NCBI GenBank assembly: GCA_030447525.1
Contig: JAUJOR010000003.1
Coordinates: 62,194-126,193 of the forward strand
Reading direction: 5' to 3'
DNA from: Chloroflexota bacterium
GTDB taxonomy: Bacteria; Chloroflexota; UBA11872; UBA12225
DNA length: 64,000 nt
Below the pieces are notes generated by a model that saw only the letters and a program-made list of their open reading frames with translations, was not told where the DNA came from and did no database searches. This document shows positions 4,698 through 21,295 of this stretch, one piece after another (the first letter of the stretch is position 1; each line of letters opens with the position of its first letter). The translations under genes were made by a program, and so were the position numbers.

Positions 4698-5074
4698 CGA
4701 CGAGGCCCACCCCTACCGGGCTCAGGGGCTGCCGCTCTCCGACGAGCACCTGCGCCACCTCGGCGTGCCGGAGTTCGGGGCCGACGGCAGCGACGCGGCC
4801 GGCCGCGAGAAGCAGGAGGCGCCGCCGCGCCGAGCGAGTTCTGCGAGCGTACACATCGTCTAATATGGGGAAGCGCTATGCCCCGACATCGTGGGCCGTA
4901 TCGCGCTGCTGCCGGACGATCTGACCGCGTGCCGGTTCTGCGGTGCCGAGGAAGCGCACCGGCTGCTGAGCCGCCCATTGGCGGCGCGCCTGACGGAGGC
5001 CCTCTCGGCCGCCGCCCAGACAGATACTGTATACATGGAAGAGGGAAAGGTCTGGGCGCACCCCGCGTGATGAC

Positions 5075-5953
5075 ATGACCTGGCCGTTCGATCCCGAGGA
5101 GTCGTTCGTCACACCGGCGCGGGCGGTGGAACTGGAGGGGGAGCGGCGCGGGCTCACCCCCGAAGAGTTCGCCCTCCCGTCCACTATGGTCGCCACGTTC
5201 CAGGGGGGAGCGTACCGCCGGCTCCTCGAGCGCGCCGGCGCCGCTGGCTCCGGTGATGCGGGTCCTGGGGCGGATTCACCCGCCGCCTCTCCGCCGGCGC
5301 CGGGCCGCGCCGCGGAGCAGTCGCAGCCCGCCGGTGTCTCCCTGCGCGGGGAGAGCGCAGTCGGCGCGGTGGGTGACGCGCCCGTGCGCGTCGCCCGCAT
5401 CAGCGTCGGCGCACCGGCAGCGGCGCTGGCGCTGGAAGGGGCCATTGCCCGCGGCGTGCGCAACGTGCTCGTGGTGGGCTCCGCCGGGAGCCTCCAGCGC
5501 CACCTGCCCATGGGGACGACGGTTGTGGTCGATGGCGCCGAGCGCGAGGACGGCACGTCCCACCACTACCTCCCCGCGGGCGAGATCGTCCGCGCCGATC
5601 CCGAGCTCTCGGCGCTCCTCGAGTCTACCGCCCGTGCGCGCGGCGCCTCGCCCGTCCGTGGGCGCTCGTGGACAATCGACGCGCCCTACCGGGAAACCGT
5701 CGGCGCTATCCGGCGCCACCGCCAGGCCGGCGTCGCCGTCGTGGAAATGGAAGCCGCCGCCATCTTCGCCGTTGCGCGCGTCCGCGGGATCCGCGCCGCC
5801 TTGGTGGTCGCCGTGTCCGACACGCTCTTCGACGAGTGGGTCCCCGCCTTCCACCACCTCACCTACGTGCAAGCCCTCACCCAAGCCGCCGACGCTGCGA
5901 TGGACGCAGCCGCTGCGCTCGCTTCTGTCACCGCTCGGGAGGCGGGGACGTAG
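5075..5953 (+). CDS. nucleoside phosphorylase family protein (PNP_UDP_1 fold)
   Basis: VRNVLVVGSAGSL...GIRAALVVAVSD and VVEMEAAAIFAVA are typical of phosphorylase family 1. It has a ~90-aa Ala/Pro-rich N-terminal extension. Confidence 0.65.
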   Translation: MTWPFDPEESFVTPARAVELEGERRGLTPEEFALPSTMVATFQGGAYRRLLERAGAAGSGDAGPGADSPAASPPAPGRAAEQSQPAGVSLRGESAVGAVGDAPVRVARISVGAPAAALALEGAIARGVRNVLVVGSAGSLQRHLPMGTTVVVDGAEREDGTSHHYLPAGEIVRADPELSALLESTARARGASPVRGRSWTIDAPYRETVGAIRRHRQAGVAVVEMEAAAIFAVARVRGIRAALVVAVSDTLFDEWVPAFHHLTYVQALTQAADAAMDAAAALASVTAREAGT

Positions 5954-6887: not shown

Positions 6888-6917
6888 CCGCCAAGCCAGG
6901 GACGGGAGCGACGCGGC

Positions 6918-7274
6918 TCAGCGGCGCGTGGTGTCGCCCAAGGGTTTCTTCCAGGCCAGACCGGCGAAGCGGCCGAAGTCCGAGTCGCTGGGCAGGATCA
7001 CTCCGGTCGCCGGCCGCGGCGACGGCGGCGGCGCGCGACGCCGACGAACGCGGGCGCCTCCAGGTCGTCGGCGAGCTGTCCCAGCTTGTCGGGGTCGATC
7101 CCCGGCCTGAGCCCGAGGGCGCGCGCCGGTGTGCGAAACGGCGTCCGCCGCGCCGGCGCGCAGACCCAGGCGGATCACCGTGTTGACCACCTGCTTGAAT
7201 GGCAGTCGCTGGCGCTCCGCCTCTTCCCGCAGCTGGGCCGCGACGTCGTCGTCGAGCGTGAGCGTCGTGCGCAT
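6918..7274 (-). pseudogene. VapB-like ribbon-helix-helix antitoxin fused in-frame to a VapC (PIN) C-terminal remnant
   Basis: N-terminus MRTTLTLDDDVAAQLREEAERQRLPFKQVVNTVIRLGL is an RHH/CopG-type antitoxin. The C-terminus VILPSDSDFGRFAGLAWKKPL resembles a VapC C-terminal tail (..tRN..DFaR.pGL..vnPw). The ~50 aa between are low complexity. No intact PIN domain appears in any frame. Confidence 0.45.
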
Positions 7275-7444
7275 GCACACATCATGATGCACCGGTGGTC
7301 AGGCATCAAGATGCCGCATTCACTCGAGACTGAGTCAGGCGTCAGCATGTGCACCGGCGTATGCGCAGCCGCGTCGACGGCCGACTGGCCAACTCTCCCA
7401 AGGCGGGATCAACCCATACTCCCTCGGTCACGCCGCCTTGCGCT

Positions 7445-7837
7445 TCACCAGCAGCCGAGCGCCACGTGCCGGGCGTTGCCCAGAGCACTTCTGCGGATCT
7501 CGTCTCGCACCCACTCGAAGCAGAGGCAGCTGACGTCGAACGGGTCACGTCGCCCGGCCGCGAGGGATCGGGCTAGCCCAAGGACGTCCGGTTCCCTCCA
7601 GTCCAGTACGTCTGTGGCGCGTAGGAATGACTCCATGGCCGCGTCTGCCGCGAGAGCCGTTGTCTGCCTCATGTCCTGACACCGGCGGGGACGCTCACTC
7701 CCGCCGGCCGAACGCCGCCGCGGCGCCGGCTGGCTGAGCATGCGTGCTACCGCAGCCATCACACCGGTGACGGGCTGCGAGAACCCGGACCGGCCCCGGC
7801 GGTACTGGGACACAGCCCACGTTGGTGAGTCGCTCAT
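7445..7837 (-). CDS. hypothetical protein, translationally coupled to the upstream ABC exporter
   Basis: Its ATG overlaps the ABC exporter TGA in a 4-nt ATGA. 130 aa, no recognised domain. Confidence 0.4.
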   Translation of the reverse strand: MSDSPTWAVSQYRRGRSGFSQPVTGVMAAVARMLSQPAPRRRSAGGSERPRRCQDMRQTTALAADAAMESFLRATDVLDWREPDVLGLARSLAAGRRDPFDVSCLCFEWVRDEIRRSALGNARHVALGCW

Positions 7838-9654
7838 GCCGGTCGCCGCCGGCTGGCCCGGCCGGCGGTCAGCATGAACACCTGATCCGCCAGCTGCAGC
7901 ACGGCGGGGCGGTGCGAGACGGCGAGGATGGTGAGGTCGCCGCGCCGCTGCGCGAGGCGCTGCCAGAGGCGCCGCTCCGTCTCCACGTCGAGCGCGGAGG
8001 AGAGGTCGTCCACCACGAGCAGCTCGGGTTCCCGGACCAGCGCCCGCGCGGCGGCCACGCGCTGCACCTGGCCGCCGGAGAGTCGCACGCCCCGCGTGCC
8101 AATGGGCATATCCAGGCCCAGCGGAAACCCCGCCAGGTCGCGCTCCAGGACCGCGCTGCGCACGGCGCGCTCCAGGCGGGCGTCTAGCTCTCCGGGATCC
8201 TCGGGTGTGAGGCCGAGCAGCACGTTCTCCCGCAGGGTGCCCGAGAGCAGCGCCGGCGCCTGCGGCACGTACGCCGCCCGGGGCGGGACGAAGAAGTGGT
8301 CCGGTCGTTCGACGGCGAGGCCGTTCCAGAGGACGTGGCCCGCCTGCGGCTCAAGCAAGCCGAGCAGCGCGCGCAGGAGCGTGGACTTGCCCGCGCCGAT
8401 GCGCCCGGTGACGACGGTAAGCGAGCCGCGCTCCAGGACGAGCGAGACGTCCTGGATGCCGCCGCCCGATTGCGGGAAGCGCAGCGTCAGTCCCCGCACC
8501 TCCAGGCGCTCGAGGCGGTCCGCGGGTCGCTTGACGAGCGACGGCACCGGCGGCAAAGGGCCGGCGAGCGGCACCGGGTGGTGGGCGACGAGCGTCTCCG
8601 GCGGTGCGCCCTGGAGCAGGCGCAGCGCGCGGCGGAAGGCGACGCCCATCTGCTGGTAGGTGGCGACGATCCAGCTGAGGAAGCCGGTCATCTCCGCCAC
8701 CTGCATCAGATAGGTGGCAAAGAGGGCGAACTCGCCCACGGTGAACTCGCCCGAGCGGATCTGCCTCGCCGCGACGAGCAGCGTCAGCCCGGCGCCGAGC
8801 CCGGCCGTATTGCCGAAGGTGGCGTCCAGCGCGAGGCCGAGCAGCCGGTCACGCAGCATGGCGTCCCGGCGCTCGTCCCCCAGGCGGCGCAGCCGGGCCA
8901 CCACGCGGTCCTCCGCCCCCGCCACCTGGATAGCCTGCACCGCGCCAAACAGCTCGCCAAGCGATCCGGTGACGCGGGCGGTGGCGGCACGACTCTCCTC
9001 GCGCAGCCGCACCAGCCTCGTGCGCACCACGTGCCCGAGCACGATGACGGCGACGATGGGGAGGAAGACGAGCAGCGTGACGCGCGGGTCGACCCACAGC
9101 AGGATGGCGACGCCCCCGCCGGCGAAGATGGCAAAGCCCACCACGTCGCATGCCCAGCCGGCACCCCACATGGTCTCGACATCGTCACGGAAGGTGGAGA
9201 TGGCCTCGCCCGGCGTGACCGGGAGCGCGGCGGCGCCGGGGCGATCGAATATGCGCGCCAGGAGGTTGCGCTGGAGCAGGCCCCGCAGGCGAAAGCCGGC
9301 GGTAGTGCCGGCGAAGACGTCGGCGTAGACAAAGCCGGCGCGCACCAGGGCCAGGGCCACGACCAGCGCCACGATGGCGGCCAGGTCAACACCCGTAGCG
9401 CCGAGAGGTCCCAAGAGGCGGTCAGACGTGCGCCCTTCCAGCGCGTCGAAGAACGCCTTGGCCACCAGGCCCGGGAACAGCGGCCAGCTGTGGAACAGGA
9501 TCCAGCACAGGCCGCTGGCCAGCTGCGGCAGCGGGTGGTAGGTCAGGATGCGGCCCATGAACCACCAGACCGGCCGCTCCTCCTGGAGCGCTGCCGGCCC
9601 GCTGGCCGGGTGCCCAACTCCACCTACCTGACTCACGCCGTTCATGCCGGTCAT
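7834..9654 (-). CDS. ABC transporter ATP-binding/permease protein (exporter type, TMD-NBD fusion)
   Basis: 607 aa with an N-terminal six-helix TMD. Walker A GRIGAGKST, ABC signature LSGGQVQRVAAARAL and Walker B LLVVDDLSSALD are all present. Its start ATG overlaps the stop of the upstream ABC gene (ATGA). Confidence 0.85.
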   Translation of the reverse strand: MTGMNGVSQVGGVGHPASGPAALQEERPVWWFMGRILTYHPLPQLASGLCWILFHSWPLFPGLVAKAFFDALEGRTSDRLLGPLGATGVDLAAIVALVVALALVRAGFVYADVFAGTTAGFRLRGLLQRNLLARIFDRPGAAALPVTPGEAISTFRDDVETMWGAGWACDVVGFAIFAGGGVAILLWVDPRVTLLVFLPIVAVIVLGHVVRTRLVRLREESRAATARVTGSLGELFGAVQAIQVAGAEDRVVARLRRLGDERRDAMLRDRLLGLALDATFGNTAGLGAGLTLLVAARQIRSGEFTVGEFALFATYLMQVAEMTGFLSWIVATYQQMGVAFRRALRLLQGAPPETLVAHHPVPLAGPLPPVPSLVKRPADRLERLEVRGLTLRFPQSGGGIQDVSLVLERGSLTVVTGRIGAGKSTLLRALLGLLEPQAGHVLWNGLAVERPDHFFVPPRAAYVPQAPALLSGTLRENVLLGLTPEDPGELDARLERAVRSAVLERDLAGFPLGLDMPIGTRGVRLSGGQVQRVAAARALVREPELLVVDDLSSALDVETERRLWQRLAQRRGDLTILAVSHRPAVLQLADQVFMLTAGRASRRRPA

Positions 9655-11384
9655 GCCAGCAGTTCCTGTCGGGCCGCACCTGCGCGCCAGAGCCGGGCGA
9701 CGTGGGAGCGCGGATCGGCGGCCAGCGCCGCGAGCGGCCCGTACTCCACGGCGCGCCCCTGACGGAGGAGCAGGACGTCGTCCGCGCGCTCCAGGGTGGA
9801 GAGGCGGTGGGCGATCACGATGGCCGTCCTCCCGGCAAGCAGCCGGTAGAGCGCCCGCTCCAGGAGCGCCTGCGTCTCTGGATCCAGGCGGCTGGAGGCT
9901 TCGTCCAGGATCACCAGGTCCGGGTCCTTGACGAAGACCCGCGCCAGGGCGACGAGCTGCGCCTCCCCCGCCGAGAGCTGCCCCGGCGAGATCTGGACGT
10001 CCAGCCCGCCCGGCAGCCGGTCCAGCCACGGCCCGAGGCCGAGCGTCTCGAGCAGCGCCAGCAGGCGCGCGTCCGAGACGGCCGGATCGAAGAGCGTGAC
10101 GTTGTCCCCCAGCGTGGCATCGAAGAGCTGCACGTCCTGCGTCACCAGCCCGATGCGCCCACGCAGTGCTTGCGGATCGACGTGCCGCAGGTCGACGCCA
10201 CCCAGGCAGACGGCGCCCGCAGTGGGATCGTAGAGCCGAAAGAGGAGCCGCGCGCAGGTGCTCTTGCCGCTCCCGGTGTGGCCGAGCAGCCCCAGCGTCC
10301 GGCCCGGCGCCAGCACGAACGAGAGGTCGTGTAGGACGGGCTCTGCCTCGTACGCAAACGTGACGCTCCGGAACTCCACGGAGAGCGGCCCGGCTGGGAG
10401 CGCCACCGGCTCGGGCGGCTCTGCCAGCGTCGAGCGCGCGCCGAGCAGCTCGCGGATGCGGGCGATGGCCGCGTCCGCGTGCTGGTACTGCTGGAGCTGC
10501 GTGCGGATCGTCTCGATGGGCGAGGCCAGCATGGCGGCGTACGCCAGGACCAGGTAGACCTCCCCAAGGGTGAGCACCTAGGCGCGGTACAGTCCGCCGC
10601 CCAGGCCGTAGGCCAGCGCGTCCAGGACGGCAAACGATGCAATGGCCGCCGTCATGACGCTCTGGCTCCACAGCGAGGCGCGGAGGCGCACCGGCCGCCA
10701 GGCGCGCAGGTGCGCGAAGAAGCGCCGCAGCACGTACGGCACCGCCCCGCTGGCGCGGAGGTCCTCCGTGGCGCCGAGCACCTCGCCCAGGAAGCCGAAG
10801 AACGCGGCGCTGCGCTCGCGGTCCGCCTGCCAGTGGGGCGTGCCGCGCCGGCGGACCCAGCCGAGCAGGGCGATGGCGAGGAGCGCAAAGAGCGTGAAGG
10901 CGAGGCCAAGGCGTAGGTCGACAAGGGCGACTGCGCCGAGCACCCCGGCGAGGAGCAGTGCGCTGCCGGCCAGCCGCACCACAAAGGACGAGAAGAAGCC
11001 GGCCAGCGCCCCCACGTCCCCGTCCACGCGCTCGATCAGCTCGCCGGGCGTGCGCACCTTGTGAAACGTGAGGTCCAGGCGCAACAGGTGCGCCGTCAGG
11101 TCGGCCCGCAGCGCGTTCGTCGCCGTCCAGGCGACACGCTCGCTGGCGTACGCCGCGAGGACGTGCGCCCCACCTTGGGCGAGCGACAGGAGCAGGTACA
11201 GCAGCGCGGCGCGCAGCAGGGCGGCCTCGGCGGCGCCGGCGCGCGCCAGATCGATGAAGCACCGCACCACCTGCGGCCCGGCCAGCTGGAGACCGATGCT
11301 GGCCAGCAGCAGGGTGGCCATGACCAGCGCCGCGCGCCATTGCGGCCGGATGTAGCGGAGGAGGAGCTCGCGCATCGCATCCAC
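9651..11384 (-). pseudogene. ABC transporter ATP-binding/permease protein interrupted by an in-frame TAG at 10578-10580
   Basis: A single exporter-type reading frame holds a TMD (10581-11384, MDAMRELLLRYIRPQW...) and an NBD (9651-10577). The NBD has Walker A GHTGSGKST, signature LSAGEAQLVALARVF and Walker B LVILDEASSRLD. One amber codon separates them, and a GTG follows it immediately. This is a real nonsense mutation, a split gene, or a sequencing error. Confidence 0.6.
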
Positions 11385-11399
11385 AATGGCACCTCATCC

Positions 11400-11416
11400 C
11401 TGACACCTTCTGTCAG
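11400..11416. promoter_or_regulatory. 17-bp palindrome CTGACAccttcTGTCAG in the divergent promoter region; candidate operator
   Basis: Perfect 6-bp inverted arms with a 5-bp spacer. It lies 34 bp upstream of the WYL-regulator ATG and 16 bp from the ABC operon start on the other strand. Confidence 0.35.
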
Positions 11417-11449
11417 TGATTCGTGGTAACCTGGCCCCCAGGGCTGACC

Positions 11450-12505
11450 ATGCGTGCCGACCGCTTGATCGCACTGGCGCTGCTCGTCCAGTCGCGCGGC
11501 CGATTGACGGGTCAGGAGATCGCCAGTCGGCTAGAAGTCTCGGTGCGCACGGTCTACCGGGACCTGGACGCGCTCAGCGCCGCCGGCATCCCAGTGGTGG
11601 CCGAGTCCGGTCGCGGCGGCGGCATAACGCTGCCCGACGGCTACCGCGTGGACCTGACGGCCCTCAACCAGGACGAGGCGCGCGCCCTCTTCCTGGGCAC
11701 CTCGCCGGGATCCGTGGGACCGCTGGACGCCCTGGGGGTGGGGCCGGTGCTGGACGCGGCGCTGCGCAAGCTCTCGGCGGCGCTCCCGACGACCACGCGC
11801 CACGCCGCCGAGCGCGCCCGCCAGCGTCTGCTGGTGGATCCGGCAGACTGGTGGGAAGCGCCCCCGCCCGCGCCGCCCGCCCTGCGCGCGGTGGCGGAGG
11901 CCGTCTGGCGCGAGCAGCGCCTGCGCTTCACCTACGCCCGGTGGGGACCCGGCGCCGAGGCGGCCGGCGTGGCGGGCAAGAGCGCGCAGCGGCTGGTGGA
12001 CCCCTACGCGCTGGTGGTCAAGCACGGCGCGTGGTACCTCATCGCTGCCCCCGTGCAACACTCGCCTCCCGGCATGCCGAAGCAGCCGACGGACGAGGGA
12101 CCTCCCGAGGCGCCGGCGCCCGAGCGACCGGCCGTGTTCCGCATCTCCCGCATGCGGGACGTGGCGCTCACGGACGAGCCGAGCGTGCGTGTGGCAGGGT
12201 TCGACCTGGTGGCGTTCTGGGCCGAGGCGTGCGTGGAGTTCCGCGCCACGCGCCCCAAGCTGGCGGCCCGGGTGCGCGCCACACCTGAGGTGGCCCGGCG
12301 CCTGGCACGCATCTTTGCCGGCGGCGCGCCGCTGCCGGAGCCCGATGACGATGGCCGGTGCACGCTGGCGGTGGATCTGCAGACCGAGGACATCGCCTGC
12401 CACGAGCTGCTGGGCCACGGCCCCCAGGTGGAGGTGCTGGAGCCTGCCTCGCTGCGCGACCGGCTGGCAGCCAACCTCCGCGCCGCGGCCGCCCTCTACG
12501 GGTGA
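11450..12505 (+). CDS. WYL-domain transcriptional regulator (HTH-WYL-WCX architecture, YafY/PafBC-like)
   Basis: N-terminal HTH (MRADRLIALALLVQSRGRLTGQEIASRLEVSVRTVYRDLDAL). Central WYL-like region (YALVVKHGAWYLIAAP). C-terminal extension. Confidence 0.75.
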   Translation: MRADRLIALALLVQSRGRLTGQEIASRLEVSVRTVYRDLDALSAAGIPVVAESGRGGGITLPDGYRVDLTALNQDEARALFLGTSPGSVGPLDALGVGPVLDAALRKLSAALPTTTRHAAERARQRLLVDPADWWEAPPPAPPALRAVAEAVWREQRLRFTYARWGPGAEAAGVAGKSAQRLVDPYALVVKHGAWYLIAAPVQHSPPGMPKQPTDEGPPEAPAPERPAVFRISRMRDVALTDEPSVRVAGFDLVAFWAEACVEFRATRPKLAARVRATPEVARRLARIFAGGAPLPEPDDDGRCTLAVDLQTEDIACHELLGHGPQVEVLEPASLRDRLAANLRAAAALYG

Positions 12506-12687
12506 CTCGATGCGACGGCTTCGCCGGCTGACCACCGGCAAGAAGACGCCGCCAGGGTTGCCAAGCGTCGATCGGGTGAGGCGAGCAACAGTCACTGGTA
12601 CCTTGAGCGCCGTCCGATAGCCCGCGCGACGGCCACCACCGCTCCAGCAGCCACAATGGGGCAACGCATACCGCGCCGGAGGAGCCC

Positions 12688-12947
12688 GTGGCGAAGAGCG
12701 ACCAGGGGGAGTTGATTGCGGCGGAACTGACGGTGGCCAGGACACAGGACGGCGTCACGCACAGCGGGGCCGTGTTCCGTCCCGCCGGCTCCGCCAATGG
12801 CGGTGGGCCGCAGCCGGTCCCGGTCGTGTGGGTGCGCGGTGGCGGCCAGAACTTCTATTGCCCCTCGTACCTGCGGATCGGCCGGGCGGTGGCGGCGCTG
12901 GGCCACCCGTTCCTCAGCGTGAACACGCGGGGCCGCGACATCGCGGC
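12688..12947 (+). pseudogene. alpha/beta (dienelactone-type) hydrolase N-terminal fragment truncated by an IS insertion
   Basis: VFRPAGSANGGGPQPVPVVWVRGGGQNFYC...FLSVNTRGRD resembles the N-terminus of an esterase or hydrolase. The frame runs directly into an IS left end at ~12948. Confidence 0.35.
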
Positions 12948-13196
12948 TGGAATAACCCCGCCTTGGTGGACGCCCTCACACGAGGGGGCAAGAGGCTCCG
13001 AAAGAAGGGAGTCCGGACCGATGGGAGCGAGGACGAGACCGCCGTATCCGCCGGCGTTCCGTGCTGAGGCCGTGCAGCTGGTGCACGCCAACGGGCGGTC
13101 GTTGGGCCAGGTGGCCAAGGACCTGGGGTGCACCACCAGACGCTGCGCCGCTGGGTCAAGCAGGCCGCTCTTGTGAACACCGCCTCCCACTCCTGA
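12948..13196 (+). mobile_element. IS3-family insertion sequence remnant (left end plus frameshifted 5' part of orfA)
   Basis: Left-end-like sequence TGGAATAACCCCGCCTTGGTGGAC is followed by an ATG at 13021 encoding PPYPPAFRAEAVQLVHANGRSLGQVAKDLG, an IS3 OrfA HTH. A 1-nt frameshift is needed to continue into HHQTLRRWVKQAA, after which the element is truncated. Confidence 0.5.
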
Positions 13197-14252: not shown

Positions 14253-14418
14253 AACTACACCTTGACCGTGCCGGTCACCCCTGACGCATGAACCTGCGGC
14301 CGACACCGGCCGACTCCCGGATGGGCGCGTCTCTTTTCACCGCACTGCTCCATGGCCCTACGGGCCACCACCGACGGGGGAAAGCGGCACCACAGGCGCT
14401 ATTTTCGGAGCACCACGC
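14253..14418. repeat. direct repeat copy 1 (~166 bp); second copy at 24451-24617
   Basis: The two copies differ by 2 substitutions and 1 single-base indel. The unit contains short GC hairpins (GACCG-TGC-CGGTC and GGCCG-ACAC-CGGCC) and ends with GCGCGTCTCTTTTCAC. Confidence 0.85.
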
Positions 14419-14641
14419 CTCCCGGATCTTGCGTGCTCCGGCTGGGCTGGCGCGGCCCCTCCGGTTCGGTCGCGCTGGACGCCTCGCATCGCCGAGCTGC
14501 GCCAGCACGTGTCGGCGCATGTCCGCCCATGACCATCCCCGTGCAGCGCTCTTCGCCCAGGACGATCGGAATGCGGCGCTCGTTCGGCCGGTGTCGATTC
14601 CGGTGACGTCCATTTGTTTAGTGTGTGGAAAGGAGCACCCC

Positions 14642-15532
14642 ATGTCCGCAGCCTCGTCAGCCACCGCATCCGCCGCCTCACGGCTCAAGCCGCACCCCCT
14701 TCTCGCCGGTCTCGTCGTCGGCGAATCCCCCCGCTGGCACGACAGCCGCCTCTGGTTCGCCAACTGGGGCGCCCAGGAGATCGTCGCCGTGGACGCCAAG
14801 GGCATCAGCGAAGTCGTGGCCCGCGTCCCCACCACCGTCCCCTTCTGCATCGACTGGCTCCCTGACGGCCGCCTGCTCGTCGTCTCTGGCCAGGAGGCCC
14901 GCCTCCTGCGCCGCGAACCCGATGGCTCTCTCATCACCCACGCCGATCTGAGCGCTCTCTCGAGCGGCCCCTGGAACGAGATCGTCGTTGATTCCCGCGG
15001 CAACGCCTACGTCAACAGCATCTGCTTCCGCTTCGGCGAGGAAGACTTCCGCCCCGGCATCATCGCCCTGGTCACCCCGGAAGGCGCCGTCCGCCAGCTG
15101 GCTTCCGATGTCGCCTTCCCCAACGGCATGGTCATCACCCCGGACGGCAAGACGCTCGTCGTCGCCGAGTCCTTCGCCGGCCGCCTCACCGCATTCGACA
15201 TCGCCCCGGATGGCTCGCTCTCCAACCGCCGCGTCTGGGCCGAGGTCGGCGGCGACGGCATCTGCATGGACGCCGAAGGCGCCATCTGGTGCTCCGTCGT
15301 CCACGATGGGAGCCCCGCCGCCCTCCGTGTCCGCGAGGGAGGCGAGGTGCTGGACCGCATCCCCCTCGAGCTCCCCTGCTTCGCCTGCGCCCTCGGCGGC
15401 CCGGACGGCACGACCCTCTTCATGCTCGTCGCGGACTGGCAGGGCATAGAGAACATGGACGCCCTCTTCCGCAGCCGCACCGGCCAGCTCCTCGCCGCCA
15501 CCGCCCCGGCGCCGCGCGCCGGCCGCCCATAG
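14642..15532 (+). CDS. SMP-30/gluconolactonase/LRE-like region family protein
   Basis: 296 aa with six-bladed beta-propeller hydrolase motifs ([45 protein letters not shown]). A strong RBS GGAAAGGAG precedes the ATG. Confidence 0.7.
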
Positions 15533-20425: not shown

Positions 20426-20581
20426 CACGTTAAGGGGCAGCACACTGTAGGACGTGGCGTCCTTGGAGGCACCTCAGCGTACGCGCCCACGGCGCGGCAA
20501 CAGCACCACCACGAAGCGCGCCTGCCGCATCGAGGCGACGAGAGCGGAGTAGAATCAGGACCGGAGGAGAGACGCCGCGCG

Positions 20582-21295
20582 GTGACTACACGGAGATGGA
20601 TGCTCGCCGCATCGCTGCCGGCCGTGCTTGGCACCGCCGCTTGCGACGCGTCCGCCACCGTGCCATCGGCAACGGTTGTGACCGGTCCAGCGACGATCAA
20701 GCTCACGACGACGTGGACGTCGGGGATGCGTGGCACGGTGATGAAGGAGCTGATCGGCCAGTTCCAGCAGGCACACCCGCAAGTTACGGTCGAGGAGCAG
20801 GTGGTGACGCCGGCCCCCGGCTCAAGCTATGCCGACGCGGTGTTCGTGCAGCTCCCCACCGCCTCGGCCGCGGACGTGATCCAGGGCGACCCCCAGACGA
20901 TGCCGAGGACCGGCAAGAGCCTTCCGGTGATCAACGACGAGCCGCAGATGGTCTACGGCCAGTCCAGGGCGGTAGACGCGGCGTTCCAGTGGGTCAAGTT
21001 CACGGCGAGTAAGGACGTGCAGCTCAAACTTGCCACCACATCCGGGCGCGGTGTGATCCCGTCGCTCAAGAGCGTGGCGAGGAGCGATGCGTGGCTGGGG
21101 CAGTACCCGGACCTCAAGAAGGTGACGATCGAAGCATCCGAGAAGGCGGTGACGCTCCCGTTCCACGGCAAGTACCAGCGCTGGCAGACCGCCATTCAAG
21201 CGGGCGCCGCGCGGGCATTCCGCGGCGAGCTCTCGGCACGCGAGGCGATGCTCGAAGCGACGCGCGAAGGAGACAAGATCCTCGCTGGCCAGTAG
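20582..21295 (+). pseudogene. ABC transporter solute-binding protein with a large internal deletion
   Basis: Signal peptide with lipobox (MTTRRWMLAASLPAVLGTAAC). SBP N-terminal strand (KLTTTWTSGMRGTVMKELIGQFQQAHPQVTVEE) and SBP C-terminal helices are present. It is only 237 aa against >400 for the family, so the central part is missing. Confidence 0.45.

Follow-up and report, generated by a model that had tools for sequence, protein, structure and literature searches.

The subject of this analysis is an ATP-binding cassette (ABC) exporter operon on the reverse strand of contig JAUJOR010000003.1, within a stretch of 64,000 nucleotides that is referred to here as the window. Two adjacent genes, called A and B below, encode the subunits of the exporter; a regulator gene is oriented divergently from them, and a short open reading frame (ORF) overlaps the end of B (Table 1). 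The window has a G+C content of ~70%, the named homologues are mostly from Chloroflexota (Caldilineaceae, Herpetosiphonaceae, and Roseiflexaceae), and we regard the host as an uncultured, Chloroflexota-like bacterium from desert soil with that G+C content. The first-pass annotation of this DNA had described A as an exporter gene that is intact apart from a lone in-frame TAG. This description stands: read on the reverse strand from GTG 11384 (or ATG 11375) to the TGA at 9651-9653, the frame holds only that one internal stop, aligns without a gap within the 4336 nt shared with a 96.5%-identical relative, and is collinear with 120 homologues. The codon directly 3' of the TAG is GTG (10575-10577), and the TGA of A overlaps the ATG of B as ATGA at 9651-9654, both as first noted. 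The frame of B itself has no stop in the 584 codons that precede its ATG and thus extends right through A (7834-11406, reverse strand), giving a spurious 1190-aa ORF that we put down to a G+C content of ~73%.

Table 1. Features of the exporter operon and its surroundings, with positions in the window (TM, transmembrane).
Feature	Position	Strand	Remarks
Premature amber codon TAG	10578..10580	-	CAG (Gln) in close relative; also in Logan contig L081
N-terminal fragment, exporter subunit A	10581..11384	-	Predicted TM helices 1-5 only; ABC_membrane match, hydropathy, exact database protein P0121
C-terminal fragment, subunit A	9651..10577	-	Predicted TM helix 6, linker, complete nucleotide-binding domain; exact database protein P0241
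Shine-Dalgarno-like GAGGTG, 5 nt upstream of GTG 11384	11390..11395	-	Only strong ribosome-binding site in A-B operon
Partner exporter subunit B, intact, 606 aa	7834..9654	-	ATGA overlap with A; Walker B D-D (predicted degenerate ATP site)
HTH-WYL-WCX regulator gene, divergent, intact	11450..12505	+	Same arrangement in close relative
130-codon ORF, putative transglutaminase-like remnant	7445..7837	-	ATGA overlap with B; homology only at 7487-7642

When the stop is repaired, A shows the architecture of a half-transporter, with ABC_membrane (PF00664) matched over residues 24-288 (E = 7e-18) and fused to ABC_tran (PF00005) over residues 351-497 (E = 2e-27; both Pfam), and with six hydrophobic segments in a hydropathy scan. 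In the window these two domains do not share one continuous frame, the TAG occupying codon 269. The ABC_tran match starts 82 residues further on, the N-terminal fragment alone covers only positions 6-246 of the 274 in the ABC_membrane profile, and the sixth of the hydrophobic segments, at residues 268-288, comes just past the stop. Alignment to solved ABCB transporters maps the site to the short segment between the helices equivalent to TM5 and TM6, an assignment that leans on the topology of ABCB1. The stop thus falls inside ABC_membrane and before the sixth hydrophobic segment, so that the break would leave one piece with TM1-5 and another with TM6, the linker, and the nucleotide-binding domain (NBD). 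The first of these measures 268 codons from GTG 11384 or 265 from ATG 11375, which is the start called in public databases, and the second measures 308 codons plus the TGA; the predicted products are hence 265-268 aa and 308 aa long. The earlier placement of the stop exactly between the transmembrane and ATPase domains was mistaken, given that codon 269 is within residues 24-288, that ABC_tran begins only at residue 351, and that the sixth segment follows the stop.

Both A (once repaired) and B are half-transporters with ABC_membrane and ABC_tran domains by Pfam. The motifs of A are canonical throughout (Walker A, Q-loop, signature, Walker B with D-E, and H-loop). Walker B and the residue that follows it read LVILDE in A and LLVVDD in B, and this difference is fixed among the homologues aligned, the residue after Walker B being E in 120/120 homologues of A and D in 78/78 of B. 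The two adjacent half-transporter genes thus specify Glu and Asp, respectively, at that position, and from this we predict that their products pair as a type IV (ABCB-like) ABC exporter, a heterodimer in which A supplies the consensus, catalytically active ATP site and B the degenerate one. Matches of A among solved structures in the PDB include ABCB1, ABCB19, TmrA, and TM288, the best bacterial ones being TmrA (5mkk_A), YheH, and TM_0288. No NCBIfam equivalog that could name the exporter or its substrate scored over its cutoff.

We judge the TAG to be real, and the sequencing error that the first-pass annotation had offered as one option is unlikely. Both fragments of A are present as exact database proteins, in an NCBI contig of 334,513 nt and in the Logan assembly of run SRR24765285; exact look-up of the intact B protein gave NCBI only. 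The run is a metagenome of soil from the Qaidam Basin desert, sequenced as Illumina NovaSeq 2x150 reads (PMC12624003). A Logan contig from the same run (L081, 4677 nt) corresponds to window positions 8386-13062 with 1 mismatch in 4677 and has the TAG as well. An error is unlikely because two assemblies of short-read data agree on a simple substitution, the TAG recurring in a separate Illumina-based assembly. It could still be argued that the TAG is an artefact in a wider sense, stemming from sequencing, assembly, or consensus error or from a minor allele caught by the consensus of a metagenome-assembled genome (MAG), as the source is apparently a metagenome-assembled contig and the reads behind the Logan contig may be those of the deposited assembly. 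We hold this to be highly improbable, however: the two assemblies share the TAG yet differ by one base elsewhere, consensus substitution errors are rare with Illumina 2x150 reads, and the change is a plain transition that involves neither a homopolymer nor an indel. The single mismatch between the assemblies, at window position 12469 (T here, C in L081), is inside the WYL regulator gene and reflects either a population polymorphism or an assembly difference.

Comparison with relatives shows that the stop is a derived, lineage-specific CAG-to-TAG transition. The 90% cluster of the C-terminal fragment also holds a protein of 574 aa (P0242) from Logan run SRR22405834, and the contig that encodes it (L082) is the relative introduced above, aligned to window positions 8376-12711. 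This contig has the regulator-A-B order and the A/B overlap of the window and carries an uninterrupted A gene of 574 codons, with CAG (Gln) where the window has TAG. The best 120 protein homologues of A (55-70% identity, 546-665 aa) all possess both domains, and in their alignment the column that faces the stop is free of gaps and is occupied by G in 78, A in 10, K in 7, Q in 6, D in 6, and E in 5. Similarly, the full-length matches among 160 fetched genome and metagenome loci are all continuous; the nearest matches in GTDB species genomes and JGI metagenomes, at 62-63% identity, were used as outgroups only. Because a close relative has CAG and more distant homologues have continuous genes, the stop is derived, and it disrupts a gene whose orthologues are intact, as a pseudogene would require. 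On the coding strand the change is C>T, or G>A at position 10580 of the forward strand. The window and L082 differ by a dS (synonymous divergence) of ~0.06, and the TAG arose after that divergence; that it did so recently follows from the intact state of B, the regulator, and the remainder of A with its motifs.

A derived TAG might in principle still be translated, and two ways in which this could occur have to be weighed. In the first, an altered code would assign TAG to an amino acid, for example pyrrolysine, and nothing speaks for this beyond the in-frame TAG itself. Of the ORFs in the window that have a coding signature, about one in three terminates at TAG, and two of these (14288-15532 and 4994-5953) have a complete Pfam domain before it; the codon in A is the only in-frame TAG in the window that lies between two coding-signature segments; and the close relative has an ordinary CAG. 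The marks of recoding, namely a TAG that has ceased to act as terminator and a recurrence of in-frame TAGs, are not seen, and recoding is effectively refuted. Amber reassignment or a suppressor tRNA was likewise considered and rejected, as TAG is a common terminator and no tRNA, hence no suppressor tRNA, was found in the 64-kb window. In the second, leaky termination by low near-cognate readthrough of UAG would give some full-length A, and the allele would be hypomorphic and not null. Misreading of UAG generally inserts Gln, Tyr, or Lys. The ancestral residue here is Gln, so that insertion by tRNA-Gln would bring it back, and the homologues tolerate G, A, K, Q, D, and E in this column. Basal readthrough is usually below 1%, however, many genes in the window normally terminate at TAG, and no tRNA of any kind is encoded there. 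No feature that promotes readthrough was noticed either, although no search was aimed at one. We consider leaky termination very unlikely.

It is probable, in our assessment, that A has suffered a recent gene-breaking nonsense mutation, one whose most likely effect is an inactive exporter. Codon 269 went from CAG (Gln) to TAG by one C>T transition, within what is predicted to be the short loop that joins TM5 to TM6 on the outward-facing side. Translation that starts at the sole good ribosome-binding site would then end after TM5, and a pump deprived of TM6 and of its only hydrolytic ATPase domain would most likely be inactive. Loss of function is the likeliest outcome because A holds the only catalytic glutamate of the pump. 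The comparisons described above demonstrate a stop that is real, derived, lineage specific, and placed before TM6, and from this we infer the loss of function. Of the options raised in the first-pass annotation, fresh pseudogenization is the best fit to a derived stop, a CAG in an intact relative, and an operon whose remainder is intact.

A functional split gene had been offered as another option, and it merits closer consideration. Ribosomes stopped at the TAG would reinitiate at the adjoining GTG, and the TM1-5 and TM6-NBD pieces would assemble with B into a working pump. The two codons are indeed directly adjacent, the break is in a loop between helices and not inside a helix, all motifs of the NBD are intact, and both pieces are annotated by gene callers; moreover, the A/B junction has an ATGA overlap and lacks a strong Shine-Dalgarno sequence, and reinitiation is apparently at work in the operon. 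The GTG, however, is an ancestral Val codon that is also present in the intact relative and so was not gained as a start. Duplex energies with the anti-Shine-Dalgarno sequence are -9.2 kcal/mol for the start of A, against a random median of -4.0, and a weak -4.3 for the start of B, and the 20 nt upstream of the GTG reach only -3.2 kcal/mol, a pairing less stable than that at 60% of random positions; by this measure the GTG has no Shine-Dalgarno sequence and does not show the initiation signal of its own that a functional split would be expected to have.

Nor does the phylogenetic distribution favor such a split. No homologue is split at this site among ~240 listed proteins and 160 loci, the sole close relative is unsplit, and a split conserved in several lineages is not what the continuous fetched loci display. 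We also considered a conserved natural split by way of the end points of 119 short homologues and rejected it: the ends are scattered, and none recurs at the TAG site. Two substitutions at columns of 98-99% conservation, both after the stop and in this lineage only, likewise argue against a product that is still in use. Of the proposal as first made, then, the adjacency of GTG to TAG stands, and the idea that the pair works as a restart finds no backing in its surroundings, its ancestry, or its homologues. We consider a functional split unlikely, and the particular arrangement of a three-polypeptide type IV exporter (TM1-5, TM6-NBD, and partner), made by termination and reinitiation at TAG-GTG, decidedly unlikely. 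If it were true, it would be a natural half-transporter split within its transmembrane domain, gene fission caught in the act. Functional split products would also amount to a natural experiment, showing that fission between TM5 and TM6 can be tolerated in a type IV ABC exporter; no finding points in this direction.

The pattern of substitution was examined as well. Between the window and the relative, the ratio of nonsynonymous to synonymous divergence (dN/dS) is 0.15 for the part of A before the stop and 0.52 for the part after it; the comparison genes give 0.28 (B) and 0.46 (the intact WYL regulator). When changes were polarized with the outgroups, those assigned to the window lineage were L401P, R423G, and R548L, all after the stop. 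Arginine is found at position 423 in 119/120 homologues and at position 548 in 118/120, and R423G and R548L, again both after the stop, are the window-only changes at columns with at least 95% conservation. The tests are weak, and relaxed constraint downstream of the stop is at most suggested by them.

Several observations weigh against a recently broken and inactive exporter and should be set beside this. The difference in substitution between the N-terminal and C-terminal parts gives p = 0.08 in Fisher's test, and we judge that the dN/dS of the C-terminal part (0.52) does not exceed the value for the intact WYL regulator (0.46). Columns with at least 95% conservation among the homologues number 148; the window departs from the conserved residue at 6 of them and the relative at 5, and 4 of these departures are common to both. 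The B gene of the intact relative is also altered at near-invariant columns (L258R and P148A; L082 3147-4424), and given these changes the exporter may be weakly constrained throughout the clade. B presumably relies on termination and reinitiation, its Shine-Dalgarno sequence being weak, and the TAG-GTG pair could do likewise. Finally, a MAG consensus is silent on the frequency of an allele in the population. With these points taken into account, a nonsense mutation that has probably cost the exporter its function is still the reading that we prefer. In practical terms, the ORFs of 265/268 aa and 308 aa are to be annotated together as one disrupted exporter gene and not as two proteins.

The surroundings of the operon were also examined. 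The first-pass annotation had reported a third small ORF coupled to B in the same manner as B is to A. The coupling is present in the sequence, the TGA of B overlapping an ATG as ATGA at 7834-7837, but the ORF does not behave as a conserved cistron. Its only homology (reverse strand) is ~70% identity to residues ~27-78 of transglutaminase-like cysteine proteases of 200-228 aa (PF01841). The remainder of the transglutaminase-like gene, its catalytic core included, is absent from the window, and in none of the fetched loci does a transglutaminase-like gene adjoin the ABC pair. A conserved third cistron was rejected, as the ABC pair is without a transglutaminase-like neighbor in all of these loci. 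Judged by its homology, the 130-codon ORF is a 5' gene remnant whose overlap with B stems from an upstream in-frame ATG, and it is to be annotated as a gene fragment.

Further downstream, at ~6900-7330 on the reverse strand, an RHH/VapB-like start (MRTTLTLDDDVAAQLREEAERQRLPFKQVV...) is seemingly continued in another frame and is then followed by a PIN-like C-terminal tail (ILPSDSDFGRFAGLAWKKPLG). The Pfam match of the VapB-like start to RHH_1 is weak (E = 0.011), and the region may be a decayed VapB/PIN-like toxin-antitoxin pair. Because the transglutaminase-like remnant and these apparent VapB/PIN-like remains both lie downstream, the ABC operon can be said to border a patch of gene debris, a setting that counts in favor of the nonsense mutation proposed for A. 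Elsewhere in the window, on the forward strand at 20426-21295, a coding-signature stretch of 289 codons comes after a GNAT-domain ORF, in the same frame and past its TGA. It has partial matches to SBP_bac_1 (positions 7-66) and SBP_bac_8 (positions 187-271) and may be an internally deleted gene for a solute-binding protein (SBP).

Placed beside known systems, the exporter itself is of a familiar design. TmrAB of Thermus thermophilus, TM287/288 of Thermotoga maritima, and BmrCD/YheIH of Bacillus subtilis are likewise encoded by two adjacent genes, each with a six-TM ABC_membrane domain and an NBD, and in TmrAB, TM287/288, and BmrCD the residue after Walker B is the catalytic Glu in one subunit, as in A here, and Asp in the other, as in B. 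The similarity is at the level of the family only, and in contrast to those systems the subunit with the consensus site is stopped here before TM6.

The base that mutated also invites a comparison. The ancestral sequence is CCCAGG, and the changed base is the inner C of CCAGG. The lacI amber hotspots of E. coli reportedly arise by CAG>TAG changes at CCAGG through deamination of 5-methylcytosine, and the mutated position in CCAGG is the same. The window contains 500 CCWGG sites in 64 kb, and 1 of the 150 differences from the relative is of the CCWGG type. A Dcm-like, methylation-driven mutation, or a base-call error linked to methylation, was rejected at this site, CCWGG not being depleted, only 1/150 differences being of this kind, and the data being from Illumina sequencing. 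In contrast to the lacI case, nothing in this DNA points to Dcm-type methylation, and the resemblance is probably coincidental.

A further parallel is with ordinary nonsense pseudogenes of bacteria, in which a single derived transition interrupts an otherwise intact gene, the orthologues are continuous, and gene remnants adjoin. The disrupted A gene is a feature of this already known kind and not a new type of split gene, and its importance beyond annotation is small. It differs from those pseudogenes in that its downstream piece keeps an adjacent in-frame start codon together with intact motifs.

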